A DNA stretch of 64,000 bases, taken from contig OZ024740.1 in assembly GCA_964016885.1 (NCBI GenBank), positions 33,356,001-33,420,000 of the forward strand, read 5' to 3'. The translations under genes were made by a program, and so were the position numbers. This stretch comes from Eledone cirrhosa (Eukaryota). Each line of letters begins with the position of its first letter. Positions within the stretch are counted from its first letter, which is position 1. The notes beneath the pieces are model-generated. The model saw only the letters and a program-made list of their open reading frames with translations, was not told the origin of the DNA and searched no databases. This document shows positions 37,073 through 64,000 of the stretch, one piece after another.

Positions 37073-40000
37073 CTGAAGAACAGAAAAAAGTAAAATATTA
37101 TTAAAAAACGTAATACTTATTTTTGGTAGTAATTTAGATTTAATATTTTATACTGGTAATAGTTTTTCATTCACTCACATTATTAAAGTCGGTAAAGGCA
37201 ATAGACGAGCTGTAAAAATGTATACATTGTGTTATAAGAAAAATTAAGAGGTACTTCATAATACTCAGGTGTGTATTAATGATGTTTTGCTTTTAATTCT
37301 TTCTTCACCTCAGCACAAAAACAAAATTCTAGAGAATGTGTATCCAGAACTTGTATTATCTGAATAATTTGGGTGTTTCTGACAAATAACACAGAGGACA
37401 TGCAAAGGCTGAGGTAAGCATGCTTCGATGGATGAACAATGTTCATGTGTGAGAATGACAAAGCATGGATGAACTGAGAGAAACTGGGTGTAAGAGGAAA
37501 TAAATGTAGTGTACAGGAGAGGAGACTATGATGGTATGAACATGTGATGCGCATGGATGTTGAACGCAGGGTGAAGAAGTGTCTAGTAATTCCAGTGGAA
37601 GGAAGCCACAGTAGAGGAAGACTAACCAAGACCTGGTGAATGAAATCCCAAAGGAAAGGGGCTCTAAATACAGAGAAATATTTTTTAAGAAATATTTTTT
37701 AAACAAAAAAAGGGTTAATGTTGGTTTACGCAGTCTTACATGTGAAATGAAAACGGTTTAGTTGAATACAATGAAAGTGGATATAAAATAGAAAATTAAA
37801 CACAAAGAAATATTTACAGTAAAGTAATGGTGGTTTATTATTTCTAACCAATTACCGTATATACTCGAATATAGACCAAAGAATATGTGACCAAAATTTG
37901 ATGGTAAAATCAGAGGTTGGCTTATATACACCATTTAAACAATATATTGATTAGCTGCCTCAGTTCATAGGTGGGTTTGGATTTTTATTTATTTTTCAGA
38001 CATAAAATAAGGATGTTGGCTTATATTCAAGTATATACAGTAAATGTAGTTTCATAAATTACAACATACTCTCCATCCAGAACCACAAATTGTTGATTAC
38101 ATTAATATAAAACATGGATAAGTTTGGTATTTTGTATTCAGTCCAACCTGTCAATTGGTCATTTTTGTGCCATGATAAAGAGCACCCAGTCTACATTGTA
38201 ATATGGTTGGCATTAAGAAAGTCATCCAGCCATAGAAACCAAGTCAGAAACAGTTCTGTATGAGTAAGATATGGTCACTTGACCTGACTTGTTACACAAT
38301 GGGACAATTCCTCTAACCCATACAAGCATGGAAAACAGGCGCTAAACAATGATGATAATAAAATTAATACAATAGTTGGAGCCAGTTGTAAAATTGTAGT
38401 AGAATAAATAATTTGTAGGAAAAGATAATTATTTTAAAATAGTTAATTAATTTGAGTCCTAAAACAGAATGTCATTAGTATTTCAATATTGTCACATATG
38501 CACCTCCCAACATAGACTGATAATTAGCGACCTCATAGTCAGGACGAGACGTACTCGACAACAGAAGAGGACTATCTTCAGGAGAAAAATATGGAAGCTA
38601 AAGGACCCCACAACCAGTAATAAATTTAAAAGCATATTACTTGATGCTTTCGACAGTAAGGAAGAGCAATTAGAGTAATACAATATAGAGGAACAGTGAG
38701 AATTCCTGAAAGCAAACCTGCTGATGGCGGCAGATGAAGTCTGTGGCTGGAGCAGGCCTATAGGCAGGAGGAGAGTAACGTGGTGGTGGAACAGTAAGGT
38801 GGAGGAGTCAATTAAGGCCAAAAAGCAGGCTTGGAAAGTATGGCAGGATGGGGGAAGTAGAGAAGACTATCAAGTGGCCAGGAGGGAAGCTAGGAGACAA
38901 GTGTACTTCGCAAGAAGGGAAGCAGAGGAAAGAAAGTTCAAGCATGTTCTACAACGCGAGGGCCAAAAACGTGAGGTGTTCAGGATTGCTAGGCAATGTG
39001 TCAAGGAAAACCATGATATTGTCGGGGAGAAGTGTGTCTTTAATGATGATGGTGTACTTGCCATCACTGATGCTGATAAGAAGGTAGCTTGGAAGTGTCA
39101 CTACGAAAGGCTACTAAATGAGGAGAATAAATGGGAGAAAGACAGTCTCCCCCCCCATCGATCCAATAGAGGAACCAGCAGTGTTAATCGAAGGTAGTAT
39201 AATAAGTAAGGCAATCAAAGATATGAAGACGGGTAAGGCGGCTGGGCCATTGGAAATAGTTGCTGAAATACTGAAAGCTTCTGGAACGGTGGGACACACC
39301 ATGGTCACCCGGATAGTAAACCAAGTCATACAGAATGGGGTTGTTCCGAAGGACTGGCGTAGCAGCATCATCATTAACTGCTACAAGGGTAAAGGAGATG
39401 CTCTAGATAGGGGTAACTATAGAGGCATTAAATTAATCGACCAGGTCATGAAGGTTACAGAAAAAGTAATAGCGCAACTAATCAGAGAGCGAATTGATCT
39501 AGATGAAATGCAGTTCGGGTTTGTGTCATTATCTGGTGGGCTCTTAGAAAACTAGGTGTTGATGAATGGCTTGTGAGAGCTATACAAGCCATGTATAAAG
39601 AAACAGTCAGCAAGGTTATAATTAACAATGAATATAGTGAAGAGTTTAGCGTAAAAGTTGGTGTTCATCAGGGCTCCATTCTTAGCCCCCTACTATTTAT
39701 TATTGCCCTTCAGGCTATAACAGTGGAGTTCAAGACCGGCTGCCCATGGGAACTCTTATACGCAGATGATCTAATGCTCATAGCTGAATCAATGGCCGAA
39801 CTAGAGAAGAAATTCCAAACATGGAAGCATGGCCTAGAATCAAAAGGCCTTAAAATTAACCTGTCTAAGACTAAAGTTCTAGTTTGTAGGAAGGAAAATA
39901 GGATACCGGTCCCATCCGGGAAATGGCCATGCTCAGTGTGTAGGAAAGGAGTAGGTAGAAACTCCATTTTATGTCCCAAATGCAAAGTATGGGTGCATAA

Positions 40001-43000
40001 AAGATGTAGTGGGATCACAGGTAAGCTAACTAAGAACATAGATTTTATATGTGGCCGGTGCTCTTGTGCAATAAGTAGCAGCAAGTGCCCACAGAATACT
40101 AGCTCATTCCATTGCACAGATGGTTCTATAGAAATAGTGGACAGCTTCCTTTACCTGGGTGACAAAATCAGCAGTGGGGGAGGGTGCTCTGAAAGTACAG
40201 TAGCTAGAGTCAGAACTGGATGGAAAAAGTTCAGAGAGTTTGTACCACTATTAGCCGCTAAAGGGTTCTCTCTAAAAATGAAAGGCAGGCTGTATGATGC
40301 CTGCATACGAACAGCAATGTTGCATGGCAGTGAGACCTGGGCATTGTGTGCAGAGGATATACGCAGACTAGAGAGGAACGAAGCTTGCATGCTCCGCTGG
40401 ATGTGTAATAGTAATATACGTGAACGGCAAAGCATAAATGAACTAAGGGAAAAATTAGAAATAAGAGGGATCAGATGTTGTTTACTCGAGAGAAGACTAC
40501 GTTAGTATGATCACGTGATGCGCATGAAAGACGACAGCTGTTTAAAAAAGTGCAGGGCAATAAAAATAGACGGTAGCCACGGAGTAGGCAGACCCAGAAA
40601 AACCTGGGACGACTTGATAAATTCCGACCTCACACACTTACACCTCTCCAAGACAATGTCACTGGACCGAGATCTTTGGCGCTACACAGTAATACAGAAG
40701 ACCCGCCTTACCTAAGTACAAAGTGAAACCTACTACAGTCAGTAGGCACCTCTAACAAAAATACACCCTCGTCCCACTACCCCCACCCCATCCACACCAC
40801 CCCTTTCAATGTAAAGTTATGTTGGTACCACAACATCCAGTCCAAAACAAATGAGGTCGTGTAGGTGTCACAACAAAAAAAACACACAGTCCACGCTGTA
40901 ATGTGGCCGTGTAGGTAACACGGTAAAAACCTCCCAGTCCACACTGTAAACGTGGTTGGTGTTAGGAAGGGCATCCAGCCGTAGAAAACCCACCAGACAG
41001 TCCTATGCGAGCAAGACAACCACTCTTGCTCAAGTGGAAAAACTCCCGTCCAAACCCATGCAAGTGTGGAATATTGACGTTAAACGATGATGATGATGAT
41101 GATGATATCATTAAAGAGTAGTAATAGTATTTATACTTACCGAAAATCACCAGATGTTTTCCGTTGGAAGGCTCCTAAGGTATTTGGGACATTTTCACTA
41201 ACTGTTATAATCTCAAACCCCACAGCATATTGCCTGAATAATTTAAATATATTTGCATAATATCTTTGGATTGATGTGTTAGAAAAATAATGAATAAGAA
41301 TTTTAAAAGAAAATACCTGTGCATTTGGTGTAAGATGTAAAGGTTTATCAAATGTTAAGTATAATGAACAAAACAATAATAAATTGCTTGTTTGATTTCT
41401 TAAGGTATTTAAATAATTAGAAAATATACCTTAAATTTTATTTAGTATTTAGTATATGCTGAAAAACTAAATGTTCGGACATAAAATAGTTTTCCTTGCA
41501 TTAAGATTCCTATTCTAATAGCCAAACACAAACCTCAAATCAACAACAGACAAGAACAAAACACAAAGTGGATAACAAAAACAGACAGACTACCACACTT
41601 CTTTCCACTTCAACAATAGATATAAGCAGAACATGGCTTACAACACATACCATTTGATCCATTCATCATTTCCAGTGTTGAAAAAAACCCACCAGTTTCA
41701 GATTAAAAAATGCTAGCTTAAAAACAACACAAGAGATCCTACTCTAAATTAGTTTCCTCATCTCATCTTTTGATAATGGGATTTTACCCTGAAATATTAA
41801 GGGTTAATAAGCACCACCAAGGTAACATCCACACAACTTTATCATTATTTTTAACATTTTATGTCTTATTTACATTGCTGTAATTTCTACACGCCATTTC
41901 TACAACCTATCTAATTTTAATGAGAATCGACTTATTGTAAATACCTACTTCAATTTCATCAATTCTAATTTTATTTGATAAATATTGGTACTTACTTAGG
42001 TCCCATCAATTCAATCAAAATATGATTTTCAGCTGACTGATTGTCGATATTTATCTGATAAATAGGATTGTTTTTATGTGTTTGTGGATAGTTAGCACAA
42101 CCACCAGCAGAGATTCCCTTCCAGTGGCCTGTGATCTGGCAAACAAACAAAAAATACAACCTCAATGTTAACTCATGAAAAAGTCACTTTTTAACAATTG
42201 TCTTTCCACAACTTCACAAAGTTGAAATAATGGTTATCATATTTACTGTAGTAATGTGAAGCAGCATGGTGATGATAATGGTTTCTAATTTAGGCACAAG
42301 GACAACAAATTTTGAGAAGGAATGTTGATTAAATCGACCACGTAAGGATGAAAGCAAAGCTAACCTCAGCAGGATTTGAAATCAAAACGTAAAGGGACGT
42401 AACTCTATGCCACGAAGCATAGTGTCCGACGTTCTATTGATGCTGCCAATCCATGGACAAAAACCAACACAATGGGGTTTACATTGAGTAAAGGGAAAGA
42501 AGCCAGTATAACAATAACAGTAATTGTAATAAATATTCATGATAATACAAAACAATAACAAATATCAACTAGGAAGAGTTCCCCAATAAAAAGGGACTGC
42601 ATTTTAAGGTAATTCCAGGGAAAACTCCACACAAAATCCCAGATTACTCTGTTATGTCAAGGGCATTGGAAGTGGCCTCTCCTGGCATATTTCCTCCTGT
42701 TTAGAGAAGCATAGTCTGTGTCGGCCTATTCAGTCCCATTTATCTCGCCACACTCACCTATTTTTCATAAAATACACTATAAGGTAGCACCTCCCTCTCT
42801 ACTCACACATTCTTCTTCAAGTTCCACTTGAAGATGTTGATGAGTGTTTGGCCAGAGAGGAAGATACATGTTCTCAAACATTTTAAATATGCCTATCACA
42901 GGTTCTGTTACCATAGCTAGCAGGCAGAAGAAAACTTGCTATGCCTCCCTTCGAAAGAAATGTGGTGGTTCAATTTTCACTATAGATCTGGCTGATAGTT

Positions 43001-46000
43001 GCATGTCTTACACATAATAGCAGTTTTTGACACATGCCCTAAAGTCTGCAATGGAAAGACACTGGGTGGATTCATCATCCTGTGTACATATCAGACTGAT
43101 TTAGTTGTTAGCAATTATGTGCCTGTAGAGTTTGTTATACCTCAGACAGGTTTAGCTGTTAGTAATTCTGTCTGTAGAGTTTGTTACACCTCGGACAGGT
43201 TTAGTTGTTAGTAATTCTGTTACAAACTGGTAGTACCCCTCTGTAGCACTGCTATGCCAAGTATTTTTGGAAATTTTTTGAAAGTCTTCCAGAAGATCTT
43301 GCTCGGACTGTTTTTATCAATGTCCAGAGCTTCTCTCAGGCCATCATCACTCATATTTTCTACTAACAAGCAATGTTTTTCATCTGCTGATTGCATTCTC
43401 CAATTGTAAAAAGTGTTGTCAATGTCTTGCAGTACTTTTAATAATAATAATAATAATTTCAACTAACAATAACTATTTTTTAGATATATACTTCCTTGGC
43501 TATGAGTCCACCTACAACAGCAATGATGATGACAACAATGACAACAACAAGTGACTTGTCAGATGACTAAATACCCTGGTGCATTATCCATCTGCACTGC
43601 GTGACAGAGCTATAATAATGATTTCTTCTATAGGCATAAGGCCAGCAATTATCCCAGTGTATTACTGGTACTTTATTTTATCGACCTCGTAAGGATGAAA
43701 GGCAATGTTAACCTCAGCGGGATTTGAACTCAGACCATAAAGGGCCGTAATTCTTTGCTGCAAAGCAAGGCGTCAGACTCTCTACGATACTGCCAATCCA
43801 CCACCATATCATCATCATCATTTTACGTCCGCTTTTCCCTGCTTGCAAGGGTGGGACGGGAACTGATTCTGGCTTGATTTCTACAGCTGGATGCCCTTCC
43901 TAATACCAACCTCATTTACAGTGAGTGATGGGTGCTTTTTTGCCGTGGCACCTCCACGACCACTTTGCAGTGGAATGATATGGACCCCAGTCCCTATCAT
44001 CTCATTTCTACAGCTGAGTAAACTGGAGCAACGTGAAATAAAGTGTCTTGCTCAAGGAAACAACAGATCACCCGGTCTGAGAATTGAACTCACAACCTTT
44101 CGATTGCAAGGCCAATGCTCTAACCACTAAGCCATGTGCCTCCAACAGCGCTATAATAATAGCAACGATTTCTAATTTAGGAATGATGCTTGCAATGTAT
44201 AGGGAAAGCAAAGTCGATTATATTGACCCTATTTTTTAACTAGTACTTTATTTTATCAACAACAGAATAGCAAAATTGACCTTGGTGGAATTTGAAACCA
44301 GAATGTACAGAGTTGGAATAATTACTACAAGGTATGTTGTCCAATACTTTAATGATACTGCGAAGGTCAGAAATTTGGTGGAGAAATTAATTAAACAATT
44401 ACATTTTTATTCTGGATATGGGCTAATTAGATGTTATTTTTAACCTATATGTTATTTTTAACCTAATGGAGGCGCATGGCTTAGTGGTTAGAGCATTGGC
44501 CTTGCAATCGAAAGGTTGTGAGTTCAATTCTCAGACCGGGTGATCTGTTGTTTCCTTGAGCAAGACACTTTATTTCACATTGCTCCAGTTTACTCAGCTG
44601 TAGAAATGAGATGATAGGGACTGGGGTCTATATCATTCCACTGCAAAGTGGTCGTGGAGGTGCCACGGCAAAAAAAAGCACCCAGCACTCACTGTAAATG
44701 AGGTTGGTGTTAGGAAGGGCATCCAGCTGTAGAAATCAAGCCAGAATCAGTTCCCGTCCCACCCTTGCAAGCAGGGAAAAAGCGGACGTAAAATGAAATG
44801 ATGAAAATGATGAGTAGACTGTCTAGATAATTTGTTGGCCTTTAATTAAGATATGGGCTAATTAGATGTTATTTTTAACCGACTAAAAGCTGTCTAGATA
44901 ATGTGTTGGCCTTTATTTAAGATGTGAGCTAGTTAGATGTTATTTCTAACCTACAGTAGACTGTCTAGATCAGAGGCATGCTACAGGTGGCCTGCGGGCC
45001 ACAATCCGGCCCGCCAGACCAGTCAGAGTGGCTCGCGATGACCATTTTCCTAGTGCTGCAAGAACCAAAGAACAGGTAGTAAACTCATAATTAATTTACT
45101 GTTGAAAACTAGTTCATTTACTCTGTTAATGATCATAGAAAAGGCCATAAATATCACAATTATCTTTTTCTTACATCCTGTAATCAACAGGACTGATGAT
45201 GGTGGTAATGTCAATGGTGTCAGTGGTGTGAATTGTTTCAGTTTTGTGGAATAGTTTTTTTCACATTGAAGTGTTGGTCTTTAATGTAAGTGTCTGGGAA
45301 ATATATACACATACACCAGGTCCAAACATAAAGGAGCCAAACTTCCCCTGTCACTGCCTCCGTCCCTCCCGCTCTCCCCATCTCTCATTATTATGAGCAA
45401 ATGGGGGTCCATGTGCTGGTCGGCCTGTGGCCCCAGCAGACTGATTGTTAATGGTAATCTCTGATCACAAAAGCAAGTAATTAACTATTAATATTGCACC
45501 AGAGCATAGAATAAATATATTTTTGTAGTAAAAACTAGCAGAATGACCCGGCTTTGCTCGGGATTTGCTCTAGGGTTCTTATATATTTGATATATATTTA
45601 TCCTTATCGAGCCTCGTGAAATAAATACGTTTGTTTATATTTTGTTATAGTGTATGCAAAAATATCTGTACACGAATATATAATTATATATATATTAAAA
45701 TAACAGATTAAAGTTTAAGTAAAGAATCGCTGCTTTCACCCTTAATGGGATTTTCTGAAACTAAAAAAATCAATCTGTAAACGCAGAAGTAAATATTTCG
45801 ATAAACGTTACACACTATATATATATATATATACACACACTATATATACATATATACAACACACACACAGATAGCGAAGTCAATGTCGTAATGCAGACAG
45901 CCAGGCATACAGACAGATATTATAAGGGTGCAACGTTATATCTATGTATCTATCTAAAAAGAGAAAGACTAAGAATTATAGAGAGAGATCGCTAAATCGC

Positions 46001-47970
46001 CTAATGCGGTCCCTAGGGCATTGAAAATTTGAAATTCTTTTTTGCTCAAAACACTCACAGGACCATAAGTATTACATTTGTAAAGTTTGAAAACAATCGG
46101 TTGGGTGGTTCTCGAGTTTTAGTGGTCGGACAGACAGACAGACATTCCCTGTTTTAGATATATAGATAATAATATAATTTACAATGGAAGCAATCCCAAT
46201 ATCTTGTAAAGATATTCTTTCCTAAGTAAATGGAACTTTAATCTCCGACTTTCCTTCCCAAAGGGTTTTCTTTTATGAATCATCCTGTTTTTTTTGTTTT
46301 TGCTGTACCATTTCCAATGAAATTGGTTCAAGGTATTACAGTATTGAAATATTTCAAATTTTAAAAAATAACACAGCAAAACTTACCTTTTTGCCATATT
46401 CTTTTTTGTAGGGGTCAACAATGCCTGTGAGACTGAACTCAGAATTAGCATAAACGCGTAGAGTGTAATAAATAGAATTATTCTTTTCATACTGTGAAAC
46501 AATCAAAGTGTATGAATGAGTACCAGGTTCCTCCTCCAGTTTACAAAGGTAGTGAGGGCTGTTGATTCTTACTCCATCAATATAAGGTGGGGGGTCATCT
46601 GAAAATAAGAAAATAATTAGAATAAAAACTATAGAAAGTGAAGAATGATAAAATTAAGGAAAAAGAGAAAAAGGAGTTTGGACTGGAGTGAACAGAAATT
46701 TCATTAGATATTTTGTATGTTTGCTTTGTAATTGTATATGTGTGTAGGTATCATGACAAAAAGCACCCAGCCCACACTGTAAATGTAGTTGGTGTTAGGA
46801 AAGGCATTCAGCCATAGAAACTTGAAGAAATGGGTGAGAGAGATAGAGCCAGAGAAATAGAATCAGATGGCTAGATCATGTATTTAGAAAGGATGAAATA
46901 GAATGGGTGAGAGGAATAGAGTCAGTAAAGAATGTTGTAAAGAGAAAAAGAATGAGATGGTTGGGTCATTTGTTGAGGAAGGATAAACATAACCTGGTGA
47001 GAAGAATAGAGTGATGTTGTGAAAAGAAATGGAATGAAATGGTTGGATCATGTGTTGAAGAAAGATGATGAATGTGGAAGGAAGCAGAGGACAGGGGAAA
47101 CCAAGAAAGATATAGCCAAAGGTGATGAAGGAGGAAATGAAAGCTAAGTGGCTGGTGAGGTGGGGATTCAGACATTAGGGAAAAGTGGAGAAACTTGTCA
47201 TGAAGCCTCATTAGGCTAACTCCTGCTTTAGCATGGAACATGGCTTAAAACACTTGCTGTTTCTTTTAGTTTCAGAAACAGAAGTTGTAATACACATAAG
47301 CCCCTGTCCCACCCTTGTAAGCAGGGAAAAAGCGGACGTAAAATGAAATGATAAGAGATATTATACTCAAAGAAATACAGTATATGACCAGTTAACAGAT
47401 TATATGGTTATTGTAAATTGTGTTGAATGTGTGTGTATGTATTTATATATATGCGACTACAATAACAGCAACAGCACCATTGTCAGCAGCAGCAGCAGTG
47501 AAATGAAGAACAGCAACAACAGCGGCGGCGGCGGCAGCAGCAACAACAACTGCCACCACCACCACCATCACCATACTGACACCATCCACCACCTTCACCA
47601 CTACTACCACTGCCACCATCAATAGCACCATCCATCACCATACCATCAGTCGCCACCACCGTCACCATCAGACACCATCCACCACCTCCACCACTACCAC
47701 CACCATCACCATGACTGACACCATCCACCACCATCACTGACACCATCCACCACCACCACCATTACCAGCTTAAAGCAAACAATTATTATTATTATTATAT
47801 AAAAACTGAACTGGACTGGGAAAAGTCAACAGTTGACATGATTTTGATTTTGTATCAGTACTGTTGGTAATATATATATATATGTGTGTGAGTGGTGTGT
47901 GTGTTTGTATGCATAAGTGTTGATGTGTGAGTGGCGTGTGTGTTTGTAGTTTGTATGCATGAGTGTTGGT

Positions 47971-48008
<38 letters not shown>

Positions 48009-51000
48009 CGTGTTGTGTCAATAAGTGTTTTTTTTTTGTTTTTTTTATGACCATGCTGTAAAATGGAGGGGTAGAGAGGGCCCTTGAGTCTAGTAAGATA
48101 TCCTCTCTAGTGCTGGTGGCACAAATAAAAGCACCCAGTCCATGCTGTAAAGTGGCGCTGGTGTTAGGAAGGGCATCCAACCAGTGTATCAATGCCAAAA
48201 CGCTTAGCAGCACAGCAACAAGTAAGATAGGAACAACAACAAAATATGAAGATGTCGCATCTCAGAGTTGCAACACTTAATGTTGGCACTCTCAGAGGTA
48301 GATCTGCCGAAATAGCGGAGATGCTGGAGAGAAGGCATGTGGATGTGTGCTGCGTGCAAGAGGTGAGATGGAGAGGTGCTTCTGCGAGACTAGCTATAAG
48401 CTTTTCTGGGTAGGTAAGGATGATGGGTTAGGGGGGAGTAGGCATTTTCCTGGCTGAGAAATGGATCAATAAGACAATAGAGGTAGTTCGAGTTAGTAAT
48501 CGAATAATTAAGCTTAGATTAGTTGTAGGCAGGAGACTACTGACAATCATCTCGGCCTATGCTTCCCAAGCAGGCCTAGGCAAAGATGAGAAAGACTGCT
48601 TTTACAAACAACCGCAATGACAGAGGACGGAGACATCGTTATGCTAGCAGGGGACTTCAATGGTCATGTTGGACAGCTCCAGGATGGTTACACTAGGGTA
48701 CATGGTGGGCACGGTTATGTCTCAAGAAATGAAGAAGGAGTGAGACTTCTTGAATTTTGTGATGCAAGTACACTGACTATTTGCAACACAAACTTCCAGA
48801 AACTTGCCAATCACCTAATAACCTACAAATTTGGCGAGCACATAAGCCAGATTGACTTCTTACTAGTTAGGCAGTGGGACAGGCAGATAGTATCTAATAC
48901 CAAGGCATACCCTGGGGAAGAATGTACCCCACAGCATAGGTTAGTCGTTAGTGATATCTCAGTAAGCAAAAGATGGAATGAGACATATAGGAAGGTGTGG
49001 AAAAGAAAGGTCTGGAAGCTAAAAGACCTTTCACTAAAATACAAATTTAGGAAAGCCCTTCAAGATGTATATGATGAAAAAGAAGACGATTTAGAGACAT
49101 AGATAATAACTGGACATAGATAATAACTGGAATTTCTTACGTGACAACTTACTGCAGGCTACTGATGAAACTTGTGGCTGGAGCAGAGCTCCAACCAGAC
49201 AGAGAGTGACCTGGTGGTGGAACAGCACAGTAGATAAGGCCATTAGAGACAAAAGACTAGTAGGGAAGAATATACAGCCATTAAGAGAGAAGCTAGACGT
49301 CAGATGTACTTAGCACGCAGGGAGGCTGAGAGTAGGCGGTTTGCCAATGTTCTGCGACGGGAAGATCAGAGGCGTGCAGTGTCCCACATTGCAAGGCAGT
49401 GTGTCAATGCAAATCAGGATGTTGTTGGAGATAAATGTGTCCGGAATGATGCTGGTGTATCATGAATGATCAGAAAAAGGAGGCCTGGAAATGTCATTAT
49501 GAGAGACTGATGAATGTGGAGAACGAATGGGAGAGAGAGAAATTACCCTTAGTAGATCCGACAGAGGGACCAGCTATTGAGGTTGACGAATATAGGGTCC
49601 AAGAGGCAATTAAGGAAATGAAAAATGGTAAGGCTGCTGGACCATCGGGAATAGTTGCTGAGATGCTGAAGGCATCAGGGAACGTAGGTACTAAACTGGT
49701 TGCACGCATCATCAATCAGGCTATATATGGTGGTGTCATACCCAAAGACTGGTGCAGCAGTATTCAAATAAATTGCTACAAAGGTAAAGGGGATGCTCTG
49801 GAGAGGAGCAATTATAGGGGTATAAAACTGATAGATCAGGTTATGAAAGTGGCAGAAAGGATATTAGCAAAACTAATTAGAGAAAGGTTCAAACCAGATG
49901 AGATGCAGTTTGGTTTTGTGCCTGGGAAGAGTACAACAGATGCCCTCTTCTTGGTGAGACAATTGCAAGAGAGGTTCTTAGAGAAAAATAAGCCACTATA
50001 CTTAGCCTTTGTTGACCTAGAGAAGGCCTTTGATAGGGTACCCCGATCTGTCATCTGGTGGTCCCTAAGGAAACTAGGTGTTGAGGAATGGCTTGTGAGG
50101 ACAGTGCAAACTTTGTACAGAGGTACTCTCAGTAAAGTCAGGGTAGGAATGGAGTTTAGTGAGGAATTCCAGAAACAAGTAGGAGTACATCAAGGTTCGG
50201 TCCTCAGCTCGCTCTTATTCATTATAGTCCTCCAAGCCATAACAGAGGAGTTTAAGAGTGGCTGTCCATGGGAACTTCTCTATGCTGATGATCTGGTTCT
50301 TATAGCAGAATCAGTAGAGGAGCTAGAGAATAAATTCTGGCTATGGAAACAGCAGTTGGAAGCAAGAGGACTGAGAGTGAACCTAGCTAAGACAAAAGTG
50401 TTGATGAGTAGAAAAGAGGACAAAACTCTGATTCCGTCAGGGAAATGGCCATGTTCGATATGCAGAAAAGGAACTGGCATAAATTCTATAAAATGCACAC
50501 AATGCAGATTCTGGGTACACAAGAGATGTAGCGGGATAGCAGGCAAACTAACAGGTAGAGAGAAATATGTATGCAGTAGATGTACAGGGAAATTAGACAG
50601 TAGAAGTCGCATTGATAGACACATTTTTCAAATGCAGGAGGGTGCTATAGAAGTGGTGGAGAGCTTCCGCTACCTAGATCAGATTAGCATGGGGGGGGGG
50701 GGGGGTTCCGAGGCCATAGTATCTAGAATAAGGACAGGTTGGAAGAAATTTAGGGGGCTGTTTACTCTGCTGACGAAGAAGGGTTTCTCCCTGCGTACGA
50801 AAGGCCAGTTATATGATGCCTGTGTGAGGAGCACAATGCTGCATGGTAGTGAGACTTGAGCAGCAACTGCAGAGGATATGCGACGGCTGGAGAGAAATGT
50901 GGCAAGCATGCTCCGTTGGATGTGCAATGTCAATGTGCGTGAATGACCCAGCATGGATGTGTTGAGAGAGAAACTGTGTCTGAGAGGGATAGAATGTAGT

Positions 51001-54000
51001 GTGCGAGAGAGGAGACTGTGGTGGTATGGACATGTGATGCGCATGGAGGATGACCGATGGGTGAAGAAGTGCCAGGAAATGCCAGTTGAAGGAAGACATG
51101 GTAGAGGTAGACCACGAAAAACATGGGCGGAGGTGGTGAGAAGAGACCTCAGATCGCTGAAGCACCACACGTTGGCGATGACGAAGGACGACCGTGACAA
51201 GTGGAGAGATGCTGTGCTGAATAAGACCCGTCCCACCCTTGTAAGCAGGGAAGAGCGGACATAAAATGACGATGATGATGATGTAATATATTCAAGAGAT
51301 ATTATACTCAAAGGAATACAGTTTATGACCATTTAACAGATTTACAATCTGAATTTATTAGTTAATAATAATGATAATGAAATTATTGTGTACAGTACTC
51401 AGGTGCACTACAATCCATCAAAGGTGCATGTATAGTACATAGAATAATGTACAAATGTCAGGAAAATGAACAGTGTACGAGTCATGAAATACATGTGTGC
51501 ATGTTAATATCGAACATTTGCAATGTCTTTATTCTAGCATTAAAAAAAAACTGTCTCTATTAAACAAACAATTGTTAGTGTATAGATGAAGATCAAAGAA
51601 GTGTGTGGGTGAGGAGAGGACCATGAAAATGAAGTGGATACAAAAGAGAAAATACTACCGTATATACTCAAATATAAGCCAATCCCACTATTTTAAGTCT
51701 GAGAAATGGGCAAAAATCCAAACCTTGTTTATAAGCCAAGGCAACTAATCAACACATTGTTTAGATAGCAAATATAAGCCAAACCCACCATTTTACCATC
51801 GATTTTTTGGTCACATTCCTTCGCGTATATTCAGGTATATACAGTATATGTTTACTATCTTAATAATGAAATCATTAATAATTTTAGAAATCTGGTCATA
51901 TATTCCTTTCATAAATATACAGTAACTCACAGATAATACTTACATGGGTAGAATACTTTTTTACCATCACTCTTGTACACTAATAGGGTAATGAATTCAC
52001 GGTTATTTGCAAAGTCATCCTATTAAGAAAAGAAAAACATCTTTTAATAAAAGATGATGTAACATGGCTGCAAAGATATGATAATTGTTAACAGAGTTCC
52101 CTGGTGTTAAGATGTTCAACTACAGACAAGATTATAAATTCAAATAATGTTACAGTTGTAACATTTTTTAGTAAGGATTAAATAATAATAATGGAAATTA
52201 TTGTGTACAGTGCTCAGGTGCACTCATCAAAGGTGCATGTATAGTACATAGAATAATATACAAATGTCAAGAAAGTGAACAGTGTATGAGTCATGATATA
52301 CACACAGACGTACACACACACATGCGTGCTTGTGTATGAAGGGGGAATATCAGGTGTAGTGTTGGCGAATATCAGGAAGCATGGAGGTTTTGAAGGATGC
52401 AGTGTCCCAACAGCTAACAACTGATGCAGGTAGTTTGTTCCATGCTTCAGCAACTCAGAGCTTGTAAAAACGATTCCAAAAATCATGAGAGCTGTGCTGT
52501 TTTCCGATTTTGTAAGCATATCCACAGGGTTGAATAAAGAAACACCTGTTTATTGTAGTAACTGAACAAACCTAACAGCTGTTGTAATTATTTAACATTG
52601 ATAAGTGTCAGATAATTAACAAAGAGGTTAACCCTTCTAAGTCAGGTTGCAGAACACATGAATGAGTTGAGAGAAAAACTGGGTATAAGAGGAAACAATT
52701 GTAGTGAGCAAGAGAGAAGATTGTGCTGGTATGGATGAGGATTGTTGGGTGAAGAAATACTAATGTTTCCTAGTGAAAGGAAGCTGCAGTAGAGGAAGAC
52801 CAATGAAGAACTGGGCAGAAACAGTAAGAGCAGATCTTACATAGGAGACAACGAAGAAACGCAGTAGGTGAGGGGAAGCTCTACTAGAAAGACTCGTACT
52901 TACAAGCACGGAAAAATGAACATCAAAAGATGATGATGATGATGTTGATTTGTCCTTGTTCAATGTAATAATGAGTCTCTGATTAAGTGAAATATATTGA
53001 ACCAAATTTTTATTGTCTCCTTCAATAGTTGATGTAATATATCTTCTTTTATATCGACTTCACCAATGTGTACCTGAGGCACTCCTATCTCTTCTTCTAC
53101 ACTATATACTTCTTCACTACCACCCCCAACAACAACAACAACAACAACAAACACTAACCACTATATCTAATCTGTCCTCCACAGAATGTTAAGCGTCTGG
53201 AATTCAATTCCTGCAGACTTTGTTGTTAGACTTACAGATGTTCAAGATGTACTGATGAACAGAATCGTTCTTACGACCTAGCAATGAACTGACCAACAAA
53301 TTGGACCAAGGAAACAATGCTTCTAATGGTCATTCCATTGCTGATACTATTTAACAGTCACAACTCCTGGAAGAAGGAAGCAGAATTTGAACTCACAATA
53401 CATATGGCCAGATCAGATACCCCAAAGTATCCTGCTTAACTCTTAAACAATTTCACCAATCCACATGAACCCTGGACTAGTATTTTATCTATAGAGTGGA
53501 ACAAATACTAAAGTAATTAATCCAATGCTCTAATGACTTTGTCAATTTTCCACCTAAGTGTTCAGCCCATATCAAATGAGCTGCTGGTTTGAAAGAACCA
53601 TTTTTTATTGTAGATCTAAATGAATCTGTTTTGCTATAACTTGTGATAGGTGAAAAGAAGTACAAGAGCTGAAAAATTCTCAGTAAATGTCCAGAAGATA
53701 AAAAAATGGAAAAAAAACATTATAATAATTGTTTCTCCTTCTGGCACAAGATCACCAATTACTCCAGTGCATTACTGGTGCTGTATTTTATCGACCCCGT
53801 AAGGATGAAAGGCAAAGTTAACCTTGGCAGGATTTGAACTCAGAGGTGAACTTTAATAATTTTGCTAAGTAAGAATGACATGATTTTGGATGTTGGCTAC
53901 ACATTGTGAAGGAATGGAATGTAAACTAAATTGGTGACAAAGCCATTGAAGACAGCTTTAGTAAGGGAAAGATAAAATATGATATATTAATTTGGATGTA

Positions 54001-54624: not shown

Positions 54625-57600
54625 AATTAACCAGCAACACAGTAGGTTCCAACTGACCACATAGATTGGTCATATTTAATTAACCAGTAATACAGTAGAT
54701 ACCAACTGACCACTGAAACTGTTTAGATTTAGTTAACCAGTAATACAGTAAGTTCTAACTGACCACTTAAATTGTTGAGATTTAGTTAACCAGTAATACA
54801 GTAGGTTCTAACTGACCACTGAAACTGTTGAGATTTAGTTAACCAGTAATACAGTAGGTTCTAACTGACCACTGAAACTGTTGAGATTTAGTTAACCAGT
54901 AATACAGTAAGTTCTAACTGACCACTTAAATTGTTGAGATTTAGTTAACCAGTAATACAGTAGGTTCTAACTGACCACTGAAACTGTTGAGATTTAGTTA
55001 ACCAGTAATACAGTAAGTTCTAACTGACCACTTAAATTGTTGAGATTTAGTTAACCAGTAATACAGTAGGTTCTAACTGACCACTGAAACTGTTGAGATT
55101 TAGTTAACCAGTAATACAGTAGGTTCTAACTGACCACTGAAACTGTTGAGATTTAGTTAACCAGTAATACAGTAGGTTCTAACTGACCACTGAAACTGTT
55201 GAGATTTAGTTAACCAGTAATACAGTAGGTTCTAACTGACCACTTAAATTGTTGAGATTTAGTTAACCAGTAATACAGTAGGTTCTAACTAACCACTTAA
55301 ATTGTTGAGATTTAGTTAACCAGTAATACACTAGATACCAACTGACCACTGAAACTGTTGAGATTTAGTTAACCAGTAATACAGTAGGTTCTAACTGACC
55401 ACTGAAACTGTTGAGATTTAGTTAACCAGTAATACAGTAGATACCAACTGACCACTGAAACTGTTGAGATTTAGTTAAACCAGTAATACAGTAGGTTCTA
55501 ACTGACCACTGAAACTGTTGAGATTTAGTTAACCGGTAATACAGTAGATACCAACTGACCACTTAAATTGTTGAGATTTAGTTAACCAGTAATACAGTAG
55601 GTTCTAACTGACCACTGAAACTGTTGAGATTTAGTTAACCAGTAATACAGTAGGTTCTAACTGACCACTGAAACTGTTGAGATTTAGTTAACCGGTAATA
55701 CAGTAGGTTCTAACTGACCACTGAAACTGTTGAGATTTAGTTAACCAGTAATACAGTAGGTTCTAACTGACCACTGAAACTGTTGAGATTTAGTTAACCA
55801 GTAATACAGTAGGTTCTAACTGACCACTGAAACTTGAGATTTAGTTAACCAGTAATACAGTAGGTTCTAACTGACCACTGAAACTGTTGAGATTTAGTTA
55901 ACCAGTAATACAGTAGGTTCTAACTGACCACTGAAACTGTTGAGATTTAGTTAACCAGTAATACAGTAGGTTCTAACTGACCACTGAAACTGTTGAGATT
56001 TAGTTAACCAGTAATACAGTAGGTTCTAACTGACCACTGAAACTGTTGAGATTTAGTTAACCAGTAATACAGTAGGTTCTAACTGACCACTTAAATTGTT
56101 GAGATTTAGTTAACCAGTAATACAGTAAGTTCTAACTGACCACTGAAACTGTTGAGATTTAGTTAACCAGTAATAGTAGGTTCTAACTGACCACTGAAAC
56201 TGTTGAGATTTAGTTAACCGGTAATACAGTAGGTTCTAACTGACCACTGAAACTGTTGAGATTTAGTTAACCAGTAATACAGTAGGTTCTAACTGACCAC
56301 TGAAACTGTTGAGATTTAGTTAACCAGTAATATAGTAGGTTCTAACTGACCACTGAAACTGTTGAGATTTAGTTAACCGGTAATACAGTAGGTTCTAACT
56401 GACCACTGAAACTGTTGAGATTTAGTTAACCGGTAATACAGTAGGTTCTAACTGACCACTGAAACTGTTGAGATTTAGTTAACCAGTAATAGTAGGTTCT
56501 AACTGACCACTGAAACTGTTGAGATTTAGTTAACCGGTAATACAGTAGGTTCTAACTGACCACTGAAACTGTTGAGATTTAGTTAACCAGTAATACAGTA
56601 GGTTCTAACTGACCACTGAAACTGTTGAGATTTAGTTAACCACTAATACAGTAGGTTCTAACTGACCACTGAAACTGTTGAGAATTAGTTAACCAGTAAT
56701 ACAGTAGGTTCTAACTGACCACTGAAACTGTTGAGATTTAGTTAACCAGTAATACAGTAAGTTCTAACTGACCACTGAAACTGTTGAGATTTAGTTAACC
56801 AGTAATAGTAGGTTCTAACTGACCACTGAAACTGTTGAGATTTAGTTAACCAGTAATACAGTAGGTTCTAACTGACCACTGAAACTGTTGAGAATTAGTT
56901 AACCAGTAATACAGTAAGTTCTAACTGACCACTGAAACTGTTGAGATTTAGTTAACCAGTAATACAGTAGGTTCTAACTGACCACTGAAACTTGAGATTT
57001 AGTTAACCGGTAATACAGTAGGTTCTAACTGACCACTGAAACTGTTGAGATTTAGTTAACCAGTAATAGTAGGTTCTGACCACTGAAACTGTTGAGATTT
57101 AGTTAACCGGTAATACAGTAGGTTCTAACTGACCACTGAAACTGTTGAGATTTAGTTAACCGGTAATACAGTAGGTTCTAACTGACCACTGAAACTGTTG
57201 AGATTTAGTTAACCAGTAATAGTAGGTTCTAACTGACCACTGAAACTGTTGAGATTTAGTTAACCGGTAATACAGTAGGTTCTAACTGACCACTGAAACT
57301 GTTGAGATTTAGTTAACCAGTAATACAGTAGATACCAACTGATCACTGAAACTGTTGAGATTTAGTTAACCAGTAATACAGTAGGTTCTAACTGACCACT
57401 GAAACTGTTGAGATTTAGTTAACCAGTAATACAGTAGGTTCTAACTGACCACTGAAACTTGAGATTTTGTTAACCAGTAATACAGTAGATAGCAACTGAC
57501 CACTGAAACTGTTGAGATTTAGTTAAACCAGTAATACAGTAGGCTCTAACTGACCACTGAAACTGTTGAGATTTAGTTAACCGGTAATACAGTAGATACC

Positions 57601-60600
57601 AACTGACCACTTAAATTGTTGAGATTTAGTTAACCAGTAATACAGTAGGTTCTAACTGACCACTGAAACTGTTGAGATTTAGTTAACCAGTAATACAGTA
57701 GGTTCTAACTGACCACTGAAACTGTTGAGATTTAGTTAACCGGTAATACAGTAGGTTCTAACTGACCACTGAAACTGTTGAGATTTAGTTAACCGGTAAT
57801 ACAGTAGGTTCTAACTGACCACTTAAATTGTTGAGATTTAGTTAACCAGTAATACAGTAGGTTCTAACAGACCACTGAAACTGTTGAGATTTAGTTAACC
57901 AGTAATACAGTAGGTTCTAACAGACCACTGAAACTGTTGAGATTTAGTTAACCAGTAATACAGTAGGTTCTAACTGACCACTGAAACTGTTGAGATTTAG
58001 TTAACCGGTAATACAGTAGGTTCTAACTGACCACTGAAACTTGAGATTTAGTTAACCAGTAATACAGTAGGTTCTAACTGACCACTGAAACTGTTCAGAT
58101 TTAGTTAACCAGTAATACAGTAGGTTCTAACTGACCACTGAAACTGTTGAGATTTAGTTAACCGGTAATACAGTAGATACCAACTGACCACTTAAATTGT
58201 TGAGATTTAGTTAACCAGTAATACAGTAGGTTCTAACAGACCACTGAAACTGTTGAGATTTAGTTAACCAGTAATACAGTAGGTTCTAACTGACCACTGA
58301 AACTGTTGAGATTTAGTTAACCAGTAATACAGTAGGTTCTAACTAACCACTGAAACTGTTGAGATTTAGTTAACCGGTAATACAGTAGATACCAACTGAC
58401 CACTTAAATTGTTGAGATTTAGTTAACCAGTAATACAGTAGATACCAACTGACCACTGAAACTGTTGGGATTTAGTTAACCAGTAATACAGTAGATACCA
58501 ACTGACCACTGAAACTGTTGAGATTTAGTTAACCAGTAATACAGTAGGTTCTAACTGACCACTGAAACTGTTGAGATTTAGTTAACCGGTAATACAGTAG
58601 ATACCAACTGACCACTTAAACTGTTGAGATTTAGTTAACCAGTAATACAGTAGGTTCTAACTGACCACTGAAACTGTTGAGATTTAGTTAACCAGTAATA
58701 CAGTAGGTTCTAACTGACCACTGAAACTGTTGAGATTTAGTTAAACCAGTAATACAGTAGGTTCTAACTGACCACTGAAACTGTTGAGATTTAGTTAACC
58801 AGTAATACAGTAGGTTCTAACTGACCACTTAAACTGTTGAGATTTAGTTAACCAGTAATACAGTAGGTTCTAACTGACCACTGAAACTGTTGAGATTTAG
58901 TTAACCAGTAATACAGTAGGTTCTAACTGACCACTGAAACTGTTGAGATTTAGTTAAACCAGTAATACAGTAGGTTCTAACTGACCACTGAAACTGTTGA
59001 GATTTAGTTAACCAGTAATACAGTAGGTTCTAACTGACCACTGAAACTGTTGAGATTTAGTTAACCAGTAATACAGTAGGTTCTAACTGACCACTGAAAC
59101 TGTTGAGATTTAGTTAACCAGTAATACAGTAGGTTCTAACTGACCACTGAAACTGTTGAGATTTAGTTAACCAGTAATACAGTAGGTTCTAACTGACCAC
59201 TGAAACTGTTGAGATTTAGTTAACCAATAATACAGTAGGTTCTAACTGACAACTGAAACTGTTGAGATTTAGTTAACCAGTAATACAGTAGGTTCTAACT
59301 GACCACTGAAACTGTTGAGATTTAGTTAACCAATAATACAGTAGGTTCTAACTGACAACTGAAACTGTTGAGATTTAGTTAACCAATAATACAGTAGGTT
59401 CTAACTGACCACTGAAACTGTTGAGATTTAGTTAAACCAGTAATACAGTAGGTTCTAACTGACCACTGAAACTGTTGAGATTTAGTTAACCAGTAATACA
59501 GTAGGTTCTAACTGACCACTGAAACTGTTGAGATTTAGTTAACCAATAATACAGTAGGTTCTAACTGACAACTGAAACTGTTGAGATTTAGTTAACCAGT
59601 AATACAGTAGGTTCTAACTGACCACTGAAACTGTTGAGATTTAGTTAAACCAGTAATACAGTAGGTTCTAACTGACCACTGAAACTGTTGAGATTTAGTT
59701 AACCAGTAATACAGTAGGTTCTAACTGACCACTGAAACTGTTGAGATTTAGTTAACCAGTAATACAGTAGGTTCTAACTGACCACTGAAACTGTTGAGAT
59801 TTAGTTAACCAGTAATACAGTAGGTTCTAACTGACCACTGAAACTGTTGAGATTTAGTTAACCAGTAATACAGTAGGTTCTAACTGACCACTGAAACTGT
59901 TGAGATTTAGTTAACCAGTAATACAGTAAGTTCTGACCACTGAAACTGTTGAGATTTAGTTAACCAGTAATACAGTAGGTTCTAACTGACCACTGAAACT
60001 GTTGAGATTTAGTTAACCAGTAATACAGTAGGTTCTAACTGACCACTGAAACTGTTGAGATTTAGTTAACCAGTAATACAGTAGGTTCTAACTGACCACT
60101 GAAACTGTTGAGATTTAGTTAACCAGTAATACAGTAGGTTCTAACTGACCACTGAAACTTGAGATTTAGTTAACCAGTAATACAGTAGGTTCTAACTGAC
60201 CACTGAAACTGTTGAGATTTAGTTAAACCAGTAATACAGTAGGTTCTAACTGACCACTGAAACTGTTGAGATTTAGTTAACCGGTAATACAGTAAATACC
60301 AACTGACCACTTAAATTGTTGAGATTTAGTTAACCAGTAATACAGTAGGTTCTAACTGACCACTGAAACTGTTGAGATTTAGTTAACCAGTAATACAGTA
60401 GGTTCTAACTGACCACTGAAACTGTTGAGATTTAGTTAACCAGTAATACAGTAGGTTCTAACTGACCACTGAAACTGTTGAGATTTAGTTAACCAGTAAT
60501 ACAGTAAGTTCTAACTGACCACTGAAACTGTTGAGATTTAGTTAACCAGTAATACAGTAGGTTCCAACTGACCACTGAAACTGTTGAGATTTAGTTAAAC

Positions 60601-63600: not shown

Positions 63601-64000
63601 CCAGTAATACAGTAGGTTCTAACTGACCACTGAAACTGTTGAGATTTAGTTAACCAGTAATACAGTAGGTTCTGACCACTGAAACTGTTGAGATTTAGTT
63701 AACCAGTAATACAGTAGGTTCTAACTGACCACTGAAACTGTTGAGATTTAGTTAACCAGTAATACAGTAGGTTCTAACTGACCACTGAAACTGTTGAGAT
63801 TTAGTTAACCAGTAATACAGTAGGTTCTAACTGACCACTGAAACTGTTGAGATTTAGTTAACCAGTAATACAGTAGGTTCTAACTGACCACTGAAACTGT
63901 TGAGATTTAGTTAACCGGTAATACAGTAGGTTCTAACGGACCACTGAAACTTGAGATTTAGTTAACCAGTAATAGTAGGTTCTAACTGACCACTGAAACT
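54625..64000. repeat. 53-bp tandem satellite GTTAACCAGTAATACAGTAGGTTCTAACTGACCACTGAAACTGTTGAGATTTA, ~175 copies, runs off the window end; probably intronic to CAPN7
   Basis: Period read directly (TTTAG at 54781 and 54834). Highly homogeneous, with diverged first units at 54625-54730. Confidence 0.98.

Follow-up and report, generated by a model that had tools for sequence, protein, structure and literature searches.

A candidate tandem-pseudoknot module shared by RTE-type LINEs and a SINE in Eledone cirrhosa

In a 64,000-nt stretch of the Eledone cirrhosa genome (contig OZ024740.1, positions 33,356,001 to 33,420,000 of the forward strand; here called the window), a module of predicted RNA pseudoknots recurs in long interspersed elements (LINEs) of the RTE clade and in a tRNA-derived short interspersed element (SINE). 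What does such a module do for elements that carry it at opposite ends, or in the middle, of their RNA? An earlier note, made from the letters of the window, had read it as compact H-type pseudoknots conserved at the level of structure. As far as sequence can tell, the RTE cis module is real and very abundant; the evidence is moderate for one of its pseudoknots and weaker for the rest, its relocation between the 5′ and 3′ ends is unexpected, and its function is a prediction. The explanation that we favor, at a probability of roughly 0.4, is that the module would act as a cis RNA handle, independent of position, that lets the RTE protein choose its RNA and keep hold of it.

A recurrent module in different parts of its host elements

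All six copies listed in the earlier note are present (starting at 38165, 40856, 43884 on the minus strand, 44651, 46745, and 48110), and the helices that it quoted at 44651, 40906, 48110, 40935, 44683, and 48136 pair as written; of the copies, those at 38165 and 46745 are old and either decayed or 5′ truncated. Exact matches to the 21-nt hairpin core number 92,388 genome wide, whereas the reversed control has 0. The copies are thus homologous transposon insertions, whose recurrence is beyond chance yet not independent, so that only differences between source lineages count as covariation. With ~10^5 copies, the module is among the commonest potential RNA structures in the E. cirrhosa genome.

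The LINE that we assign to family B carries two tandem units on the plus strand, preceded by a 6-bp hairpin (40819..40836) with a constant stem and a loop that differs among B subfamilies. The first unit comprises pseudoknot 1 (PK1; 40856..40886), with stem 1 GUCGUG, consensus partner CACGAC, a predicted pseudoknot helix GUGU:ACAC, and an A-rich loop 3, and pseudoknot 2 (PK2; 40887..40906), with CAG:CUG plus CCACG:UGUGG. In stem 1 of this first PK1, which the note had counted in its array, a C-A mismatch replaces the CpG pair of the subfamily consensus. In the second PK1 (40906..40934), stem 1 is GCCGUGU:ACACGGU and the pseudoknot helix is broken in the ancestral register (U-U, A-C, A-C). The AGGU:ACCU pairing that had been taken for covariation is instead a two-base register shift, and together with a 7-bp stem 1 it leaves zero loop 1. 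The second PK2 (40935..40955) has CAG:CUG plus CCAC:GUGG and lies in a 5′-truncation hot zone of family B. The terminal element (40954..40980), with its conserved AGGAAGGGCAUCC core, has two competing folds, an outer UUGG:CCAG stem or a small inner GGA:UCC hairpin.

The SINE module (44638..44728, plus strand) consists of a CCAC:GUGG hairpin, a fully paired PK1 (GUCGUG:CACGGC, GGUGC:GCACC), a PK2 (CUCA:UGAG), and the terminal element. In family C the module (48110..48186, plus strand) has PK1 (GUGC:GCAC, GGUG:CACC), PK2 (CCAU:GUGG), and a terminal element refolded as CGCUGGU:ACCAGUG, a shifted 7-bp stem inside which GGA:UCC forms. As drawn in the note, the PK2 GUGG or UGAG strand and the terminal GGUUGG strand overlap by 1-2 G, and the last G of PK2 doubles as the first G of the next PK1. 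With these overlaps, the helices as drawn cannot all have their full length.

Several families were resolved from targeted loci and ~1.2 Mb of sampled genome sequence. In LINE families A and B, the 5′ region has a CCAAT box and lacks the module in the 330 nt before the open reading frame (ORF), and two tandem module units stand in the 3′ untranslated region (UTR). The module is also 3′ in family E, which has a GGAG loop (4/4 copies displayed). Family C, in contrast, has a single unit in the 5′ UTR that ends ~60 nt before the ATG, and its ORF passes directly into the tail, where a module is absent. A reverse transcriptase (RT) tree of 44 copies places A, B, and C close together and a twister-headed family at a distance, with the order B,(C,A) supported at 0.73-0.94.

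The SINE joins a tRNA head and a body that we take to be CORE-like to the module of family A and the tail of family C. The suggestion that its segment is RTE 5′ derived is therefore only indirectly right, as its module matches that of the family A 3′ UTR. Nor is the module confined to 5′-derived sequence: it stands in 3′ UTRs (A, B, and E), in a 5′ UTR (C), in mid-SINE, and at the 5′ end of short metagenome elements. SINEs in which the module is deleted between 13-nt repeats number 72, versus 35,479 intact junctions, a count that is weak evidence because few copies ever become sources.

In metagenome contigs, the same core occurs in at least 122 stretches, within ~240-nt elements that have RTE-type tails and sharp 5′ ends ~6 nt before a CAGUG:CRCUG hairpin; the invariance of the core in these elements is partly imposed by the search pattern. 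In these elements the loop of the terminal hairpin, GAAGG(G), could pair with the conserved 5′ end, CCUUC or CCCUUC, to which it is complementary; the E. cirrhosa module lacks this possible pseudoknot. The PK1-PK2 junction is found at high summed depth in the runs of three other organisms, with no difference of ≥15% at CAG, CUG, GGUG, or CACC, and in one contig of a fourth run. In viral contigs, a single core match looks like chance.

Compensation and predicted folding of the module

PK1 is compensated in both crossing helices between subfamilies. One pair of stem 1 is seen as U-A, U-G, and C-G and the junction pair as G-C, U-A, and C-G, and helix 2 shows changes from U-A to A-U, from G-C to A-U, and from C-G to U-A. 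When the dispersed E subfamily, in which GGUG:CACC has become GGAG:CUCC, was searched genome wide with the partner base left open, a hand tally of the 100 matches listed among 839 gave U in 91, A in 6, and C in 3.

The module units found with a hidden Markov model (n=743) were sorted into 15 types, each with at least three loci (smaller clusters and singletons omitted), and were compared with a null model that keeps the tree and the number of changes per column. Pairs with two Watson-Crick types number 7 versus 3.2 expected (p=0.012), so that covariation between subfamilies, which the earlier note had named as the test of its proposal, is above this tree-aware null. Paired cells number 252 versus 223 (p=0.0006), and PK1 helix 2 alone has 3 double changes versus 1.0 (p=0.03); the double changes of stem 1 and of the PK2 loop helix are not significant individually under the same null. 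Among 15 real copies, 87% of cells are paired, versus 21-45% for slid partners, and the covariation score is higher than in 499 of 500 shuffles. An all-pairs test places 4 of the 8 proposed pairs among the 26 that pass out of 215 variable pairs (p=0.009) and also reveals many unrelated column pairs that pass such a filter.

For PK2, the CAG:CUG stem is invariant in 15/15 rows and so yields no covariation evidence. Its loop helix has one double change, from CCAC:GUGG to CUCA:UGAG, with U-U intermediates in old copies, while CCAU:GUGG, offered as a further compensated pairing, turns out to be a one-sided wobble. A plain hairpin thus fits PK2 equally well. The terminal element has wobble changes only and zero double changes among 30 aligned copies and 123 metagenome copies. 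RNAalifold, applied to the 15 units, keeps only the CAC:GUG helix; real copies carry CpG decay. CpG pairs are nevertheless retained in stem 1 of source elements, although copies lose CpG fast. Structure-level conservation is thus supported for both helices of PK1 and for the PK2 loop-to-downstream helix, but neither for a PK2 pseudoknot nor for the terminal hairpin in the form given by the note.

As an H-type pseudoknot, PK1 can form two interleaved helices, with stacking energies of -10.7 and -11.0 kcal/mol at 44651 and of -7.7 and -7.6 kcal/mol at 48110. There is also a nested alternative fold, in which the same 3′ strand of PK1 pairs downstream.

Truncation points and candidate functions

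The ends of genomic copies offer a second view of the module. An unselected sample contains 10 genuine truncations of family B copies inside the module, and 5 of these lie within ~7 nt 3′ of a PK1 unit (read by hand, with windows set afterwards). Genome-wide 5′ junctions, counted on one strand with a TA-repeat flank as marker, number 628 in the 30 nt before the CUG of PK2, 65 in the PK1 interior, and 251 at the terminal hairpin; with 64, 15, and 61 anchor occurrences in the 1.2-Mb sample, this gives 9.8, 4.3, and 4.1 junctions per anchor copy. Among the matches listed and sorted by hand, 34 of 37 distinct loci at the pre-CUG anchor are within ~12 nt 3′ of PK1, and 6 of 53 junctions at the PK1-interior anchor fall in the 3′ half of PK1, that is, in the A-run or the 3′ strand of stem 1. 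These two segments offer equal A, TA, and ACA microhomology yet have few junctions. Several 5′ junctions carry short duplications or an inversion. The pile-up fits an RT pause at PK1 followed by trimming, events that would also account for the tandem units. An efficient signal for RT termination was considered and rejected, as 35/46 SINE copies have their full length. Expansion of the 49-nt PK1+PK2 unit has also produced minisatellite arrays with broken pairing, one of them ≥10 kb (C1:5904875-5914677, L299-L325; L291, L329, L337).

From these observations we propose that the module is a cis element of one RTE lineage, present in 5′ UTRs, 3′ UTRs, and SINE bodies, whose likely fold is an H-type pseudoknot together with two stacked helices. 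It would likely serve as a second handle, independent of position and gripped by the RTE protein as its predicted partner. The pile-up of 5′ truncations just 3′ of PK1 is what a pausing reverse transcriptase would leave behind, which suggests that the RNA is folded during retrotransposition. Pausing and re-priming may then duplicate the 49-nt unit, after which spare units would decay; the breaks in helix 2 are all in duplicated units, and the single-unit families (SINE and C) retain an intact pseudoknot helix. The swap in position, with a 3′-only module in A and B versus a 5′-only module in C, speaks for a handle. Since non-coding elements keep the module, and since it would work from either end and is present at least once in each family examined, the simplest reading is that it gives the retrotransposition complex a cis handle. 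The putative partner would be the RTE protein rather than a ribosome or nuclease, in the manner of the pseudoknots bound by R2 proteins. Of the four functions offered in the earlier note, recognition by the RT or its ribonucleoprotein accordingly fits best, while ribozyme activity does not and an internal ribosome entry site (IRES) alone is a poor fit with the 3′ UTR and SINE positions; a nuclease block keeps a small share of the probability.

A number of observations weigh against this proposal. The 5′/3′ swap amounts to one event, on a tree whose support is weak (0.73-0.94), and SINEs without the module may be rare by chance (72 copies). The metagenome elements have the terminal part only, with PK1 and the PK2 loop helix absent, and a core conserved across distant animals could equally mean a host partner. 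In nested folding, without pseudoknots, no window copy beats its shuffles (z from -1.57 to +0.96). Covariation comes from 15 unit types and few events, on a tree built from the same columns; one double change in stem 1 is probably CpG decay, and in a simpler shuffle of 15 copies the count of double-changed pairs is unremarkable (276/500 shuffles). Helix 2 is broken in three unit types, with C-A in A-second, U-U and A-C in B-last, and no pairing in the AAAAG type, so that successful subfamilies carry a broken pseudoknot helix. By our own count, A-C mismatches between subfamilies occur roughly as often as G-U wobbles. The truncation map is shaped by microhomology to TA repeats and is also explained by cDNA fold-back in simple hairpins; it thus supports a structured template, not a pseudoknot as such. 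The SINE has no pile-up of 5′ truncations at the module.

Some of the same points suit a reading of the module as a relic that hitch-hikes beside the 3′ tail and consists of a 49-nt unit prone to duplication and an old piece of 5′ UTR; the few compensations would then be due to chance, and the pseudoknots would have no role today. Expansion of the unit into minisatellites with broken pairs, young successful subfamilies that break the pseudoknot helix, nested folding no better than shuffles, and modest p-values all suit such a relic. It must be set against the three double changes in the pseudoknot helix, the excess of paired cells (p=0.0006), the CpG pairs kept in stem 1 of source elements despite fast loss in copies, and the retention of the module in a 323-nt SINE and at high depth in the runs of three other organisms, unchanged to within 15% at CAG, CUG, GGUG, and CACC. 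We regard a relic as improbable, and give similarly low odds to a block that protects uncapped or untailed RTE RNA from nucleases, where trimming of the Xrn1 type would stop at the PK1/PK2 boundary and trimmed RNAs would retrotranspose as short elements. The tandem compact units, the sharp 5′ ends of the metagenome elements ~6 nt before the CAG stem, and the family B junction pile-up with its 5′ edge at CAG would be in keeping with such a block. Most junctions, however, are inside PK2 and not 5′ of it, 21/30 family C copies extend far upstream, a block in the 3′ UTR of a LINE would leave the ORF open to 5′ decay, and Rfam has no match to a family of Xrn1-resistant RNAs (xrRNAs).

Recruitment of ribosomes or initiation factors is also unlikely, if less so. 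The module would then be IRES-like in the family C 5′ UTR and a 3′ translation enhancer in A and B, and the SINE would ride ribosomes and catch nascent RTE protein. In tobacco mosaic virus, tandem small pseudoknots in the 3′ UTR enhance translation, a point for which our literature search gave no match. In family C the module ends ~60 nt before the ATG, behind a low-complexity leader of >1 kb. Ribozyme folds linked to RTE elements support translation, according to the accessible parts of two papers (PMC8501958; PMC6765202), and Alu has been proposed, in the portion consulted of a preprint, to sit on ribosomes through SRP9/14 (bioRxiv 2024.12.16.628748). Most copies of the module, however, are in 3′ UTRs or in a SINE of the RNA polymerase III type, families A and B have promoter-like 5′ regions of their own, and the Rfam search gave no IRES match.

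Least probable is that the module is a new class of self-cleaving ribozyme, or that PK2 is a decayed twister (a P2 or P4/T1 remnant) before a post-ribozyme hairpin. A distant RTE family in the same genome does offer a parallel to the end of the module, with a twister followed by UUGG, a hairpin with GUUAG, and CCGUAAAA, and the UAAA..GAGGG piece of family C at 48048-48072 is where 5/30 copies end. Across the whole window, however, Rfam gives nothing at gathering score, and at E≤10 only tRNA-like SINE heads and noise; twister (RF03160), hepatitis delta virus (HDV), pistol, and hammerhead models give the module no score even at E=10, whereas the true twister of that distant RTE family, as a control, scores 48.9 bits (E=2.4e-10). 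For HDV-like ribozymes there is no Rfam match, and the helix order is by eye serial and not a nested double pseudoknot, with no descriptor search made. Copies also run through the module: 35/46 SINE copies keep their head, 21/30 family C copies reach far upstream, and 17/62 family B and 15/62 family A copies are ≥1,500 nt. Such read-through, together with the lack of an Rfam ribozyme, makes self-cleavage unlikely and disfavors the ribozyme function that the earlier note had suggested. A self-cleavage site before the family C module was rejected, as 21/30 copies extend past it. A vestigial twister was likewise set aside, except as a weak rival: within 40 nt upstream of the hairpin core, the genome has no twister core (8 matches, none a twister by the matched text), and viral contigs have none.

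Two further observations concern twisters. Upstream of the family C module (48048..48109, plus strand), a CCAU:AUGG hairpin is followed by GAGGG and then by a 9-bp hairpin; the part at 48048-48072 is like a twister 3′ end without P4 and thus a possible twister remnant, with no model score, and the 5/30 copies mentioned above end near the preceding T run. Separately, a low-copy RTE family is headed by a type-P1 twister (L081-L105, e.g., L095:1481-1535; L493-L497) that scores 48.9 bits (E=2.4e-10), below the gathering score, and several of its copies start at AA after a TA-repeat target, like Perere-3. A second twister-headed family (L105/L495) has a 1,043-aa open frame.

Relation to known systems and to the elements of the window

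Bipartite RTE SINEs and a conserved RTE 5′ UTR domain have been described, with a function in the life cycle of the element speculated for the segment, in the accessible text of Kojima 2018 (PMC5786205). The E. cirrhosa SINE is built in the same way, from tRNA head, CORE-like body, RTE UTR segment, and RTE tail, but took its segment from a LINE 3′ UTR, and the accessible text proposes no structure for its domain. None of four motifs is found in the supplement of PMC5786205, whose alignments may split motifs across lines, and a 23-mer given in the part of the paper seen has by eye no resemblance to the module. In the full-text literature we found no description of the module structure; subscription papers, patents, Repbase, and Dfam were outside the scope of that search, and the sequence families are probably deposited in the two databases.

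R2Tg binds a 3′ UTR pseudoknot to start target-primed reverse transcription (PMC12222951, as far as seen). Like this one and the R2Bm 5′ element (PMC12222951; PMC6765202, both in the portions seen), the module is a small UTR pseudoknot at either end by lineage, with the same proposed way of working. It differs in its presence in an RTE of the apurinic endonuclease (APE) type, in its sequence, in its tandem units, and in its place ~110-130 nt upstream of a separate 3′ tail, and the binding of a protein to it is a prediction. Twisters at RTE 5′ ends have been described, for example, in Perere-3, in the part of PMC8501958 consulted. With these and the HDV-like ribozymes the module shares the presence of pseudoknotted RNA in RTE UTRs, and the E. 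cirrhosa genome also has its own twister-headed RTE family; unlike them, it lacks a model match, is not 5′ terminal in most families, and is traversed by copies that extend through it. The upstream pseudoknot domain of tobacco mosaic virus and the tandem xrRNAs of flaviviruses are linker-free tandem small pseudoknots in 3′ UTRs. Unlike these, the module has no sequence or Rfam match, belongs to a cellular retrotransposon, and is also found 5′ and in a SINE.

The host genome is 3.0 Gb, and the window holds a transposon island between a 28-bp satellite (3-36530, ~1,297 copies) and a 53-bp satellite (54627-64000, ~178 copies); its repeats resemble those of octopods. The island contains two broken LINEs with APE, RT, and PHD domains and several SINEs. 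The family B LINE (38570..41105, start approximate, plus strand) is 5′ truncated, with a broken ORF carrying RT and a PHD finger (39507-40502: RVT_1, E=1.4e-15; PHD, E=2.7e-06), the module in its 3′ UTR, and a GAT-repeat tail. The family C LINE (47455..51285, start approximate, plus strand) has a long low-complexity 5′ UTR, an ATG at 48246, and a broken APE-RT-PHD ORF that runs into the 3′ tail with no 3′ module. A single 1,021-aa ORF with Exo_endo_phos and RVT_1 and a GAT (short microsatellite) tail are as in the RTE clade, to which we presumptively assign these LINEs by their single-ORF and GAT-tail anatomy, our RT tree being without a reference RTE. In the RTE ORFs of families B and C, a PHD finger directly follows the RT domain (39930-40060; 50450-50590; Pfam PF00628, above cut-off), and the ORF of the twister-headed family (L491) has no above-threshold PHD finger score. 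In the family C 5′ UTR (47455-48047), >1 kb of CAA/CAG, CAC, and GT repeats is common to copies, so that microsatellite-like tracts are spread by retrotransposition.

The tRNA-derived SINE (44468..44815, plus strand) has a tRNA-like head at 44477-44534 (28.1 bits), a CORE-like body, a family-A-type module, and a family-C-type RTE tail, and its module and tail, common with LINE families A and C, mark it as a bipartite RTE-derived SINE. A second copy (43810..44143, minus strand) has its module at 43884-43962. The two copies (43810-44143 minus; 44468-44790 plus) are 97% identical and lie head to head, 325 nt apart, and a read-through transcript across both would give a long double strand. An old, decayed 3′ end of a related LINE (38139..38359, plus strand) consists of module, spacer, and tail, and an old 5′-truncated module copy of the D type is at 46741..46820 (plus strand). 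Pieces of a further dispersed repeat, which by eye is another SINE family in minus orientation, lie at 42270-42430, 43620-43800, 44160-44380, and 53730-53850. An element at 45530-46170, with an ACTAG-like start, an (ACAG)n tract, and a TATATAGAT end, presumably resembles non-autonomous Helitron-type elements; similar sequence is found beside two sampled loci, L055 and L057.

Taken more broadly, and at less than even odds, the module may be an undescribed, compensated tandem-pseudoknot structure that a whole RTE lineage and its SINEs require in cis, that works from either RNA end, and whose terminal part is common to RTE-derived elements of another animal group. If the pairs are functionless, the module is an ordinary repeat. 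Why RTE elements keep a conserved UTR piece in non-autonomous derivatives is a question left open in the accessible text of PMC5786205, and the module makes it directly testable, being a mutable 75-nt candidate with natural compensatory variants and a natural 5′-to-3′ relocation. RTE UTRs have been tuned empirically as gene-insertion templates (PMC13708176, in the part seen), for which a defined recognition structure would help. If the broader reading holds, it would explain in structural terms why bipartite elements and SINE bodies arise from RTE and from hardly any other LINE, and the 5′-truncation points in the genome would amount to a natural RT-stop map of the fold of the module.

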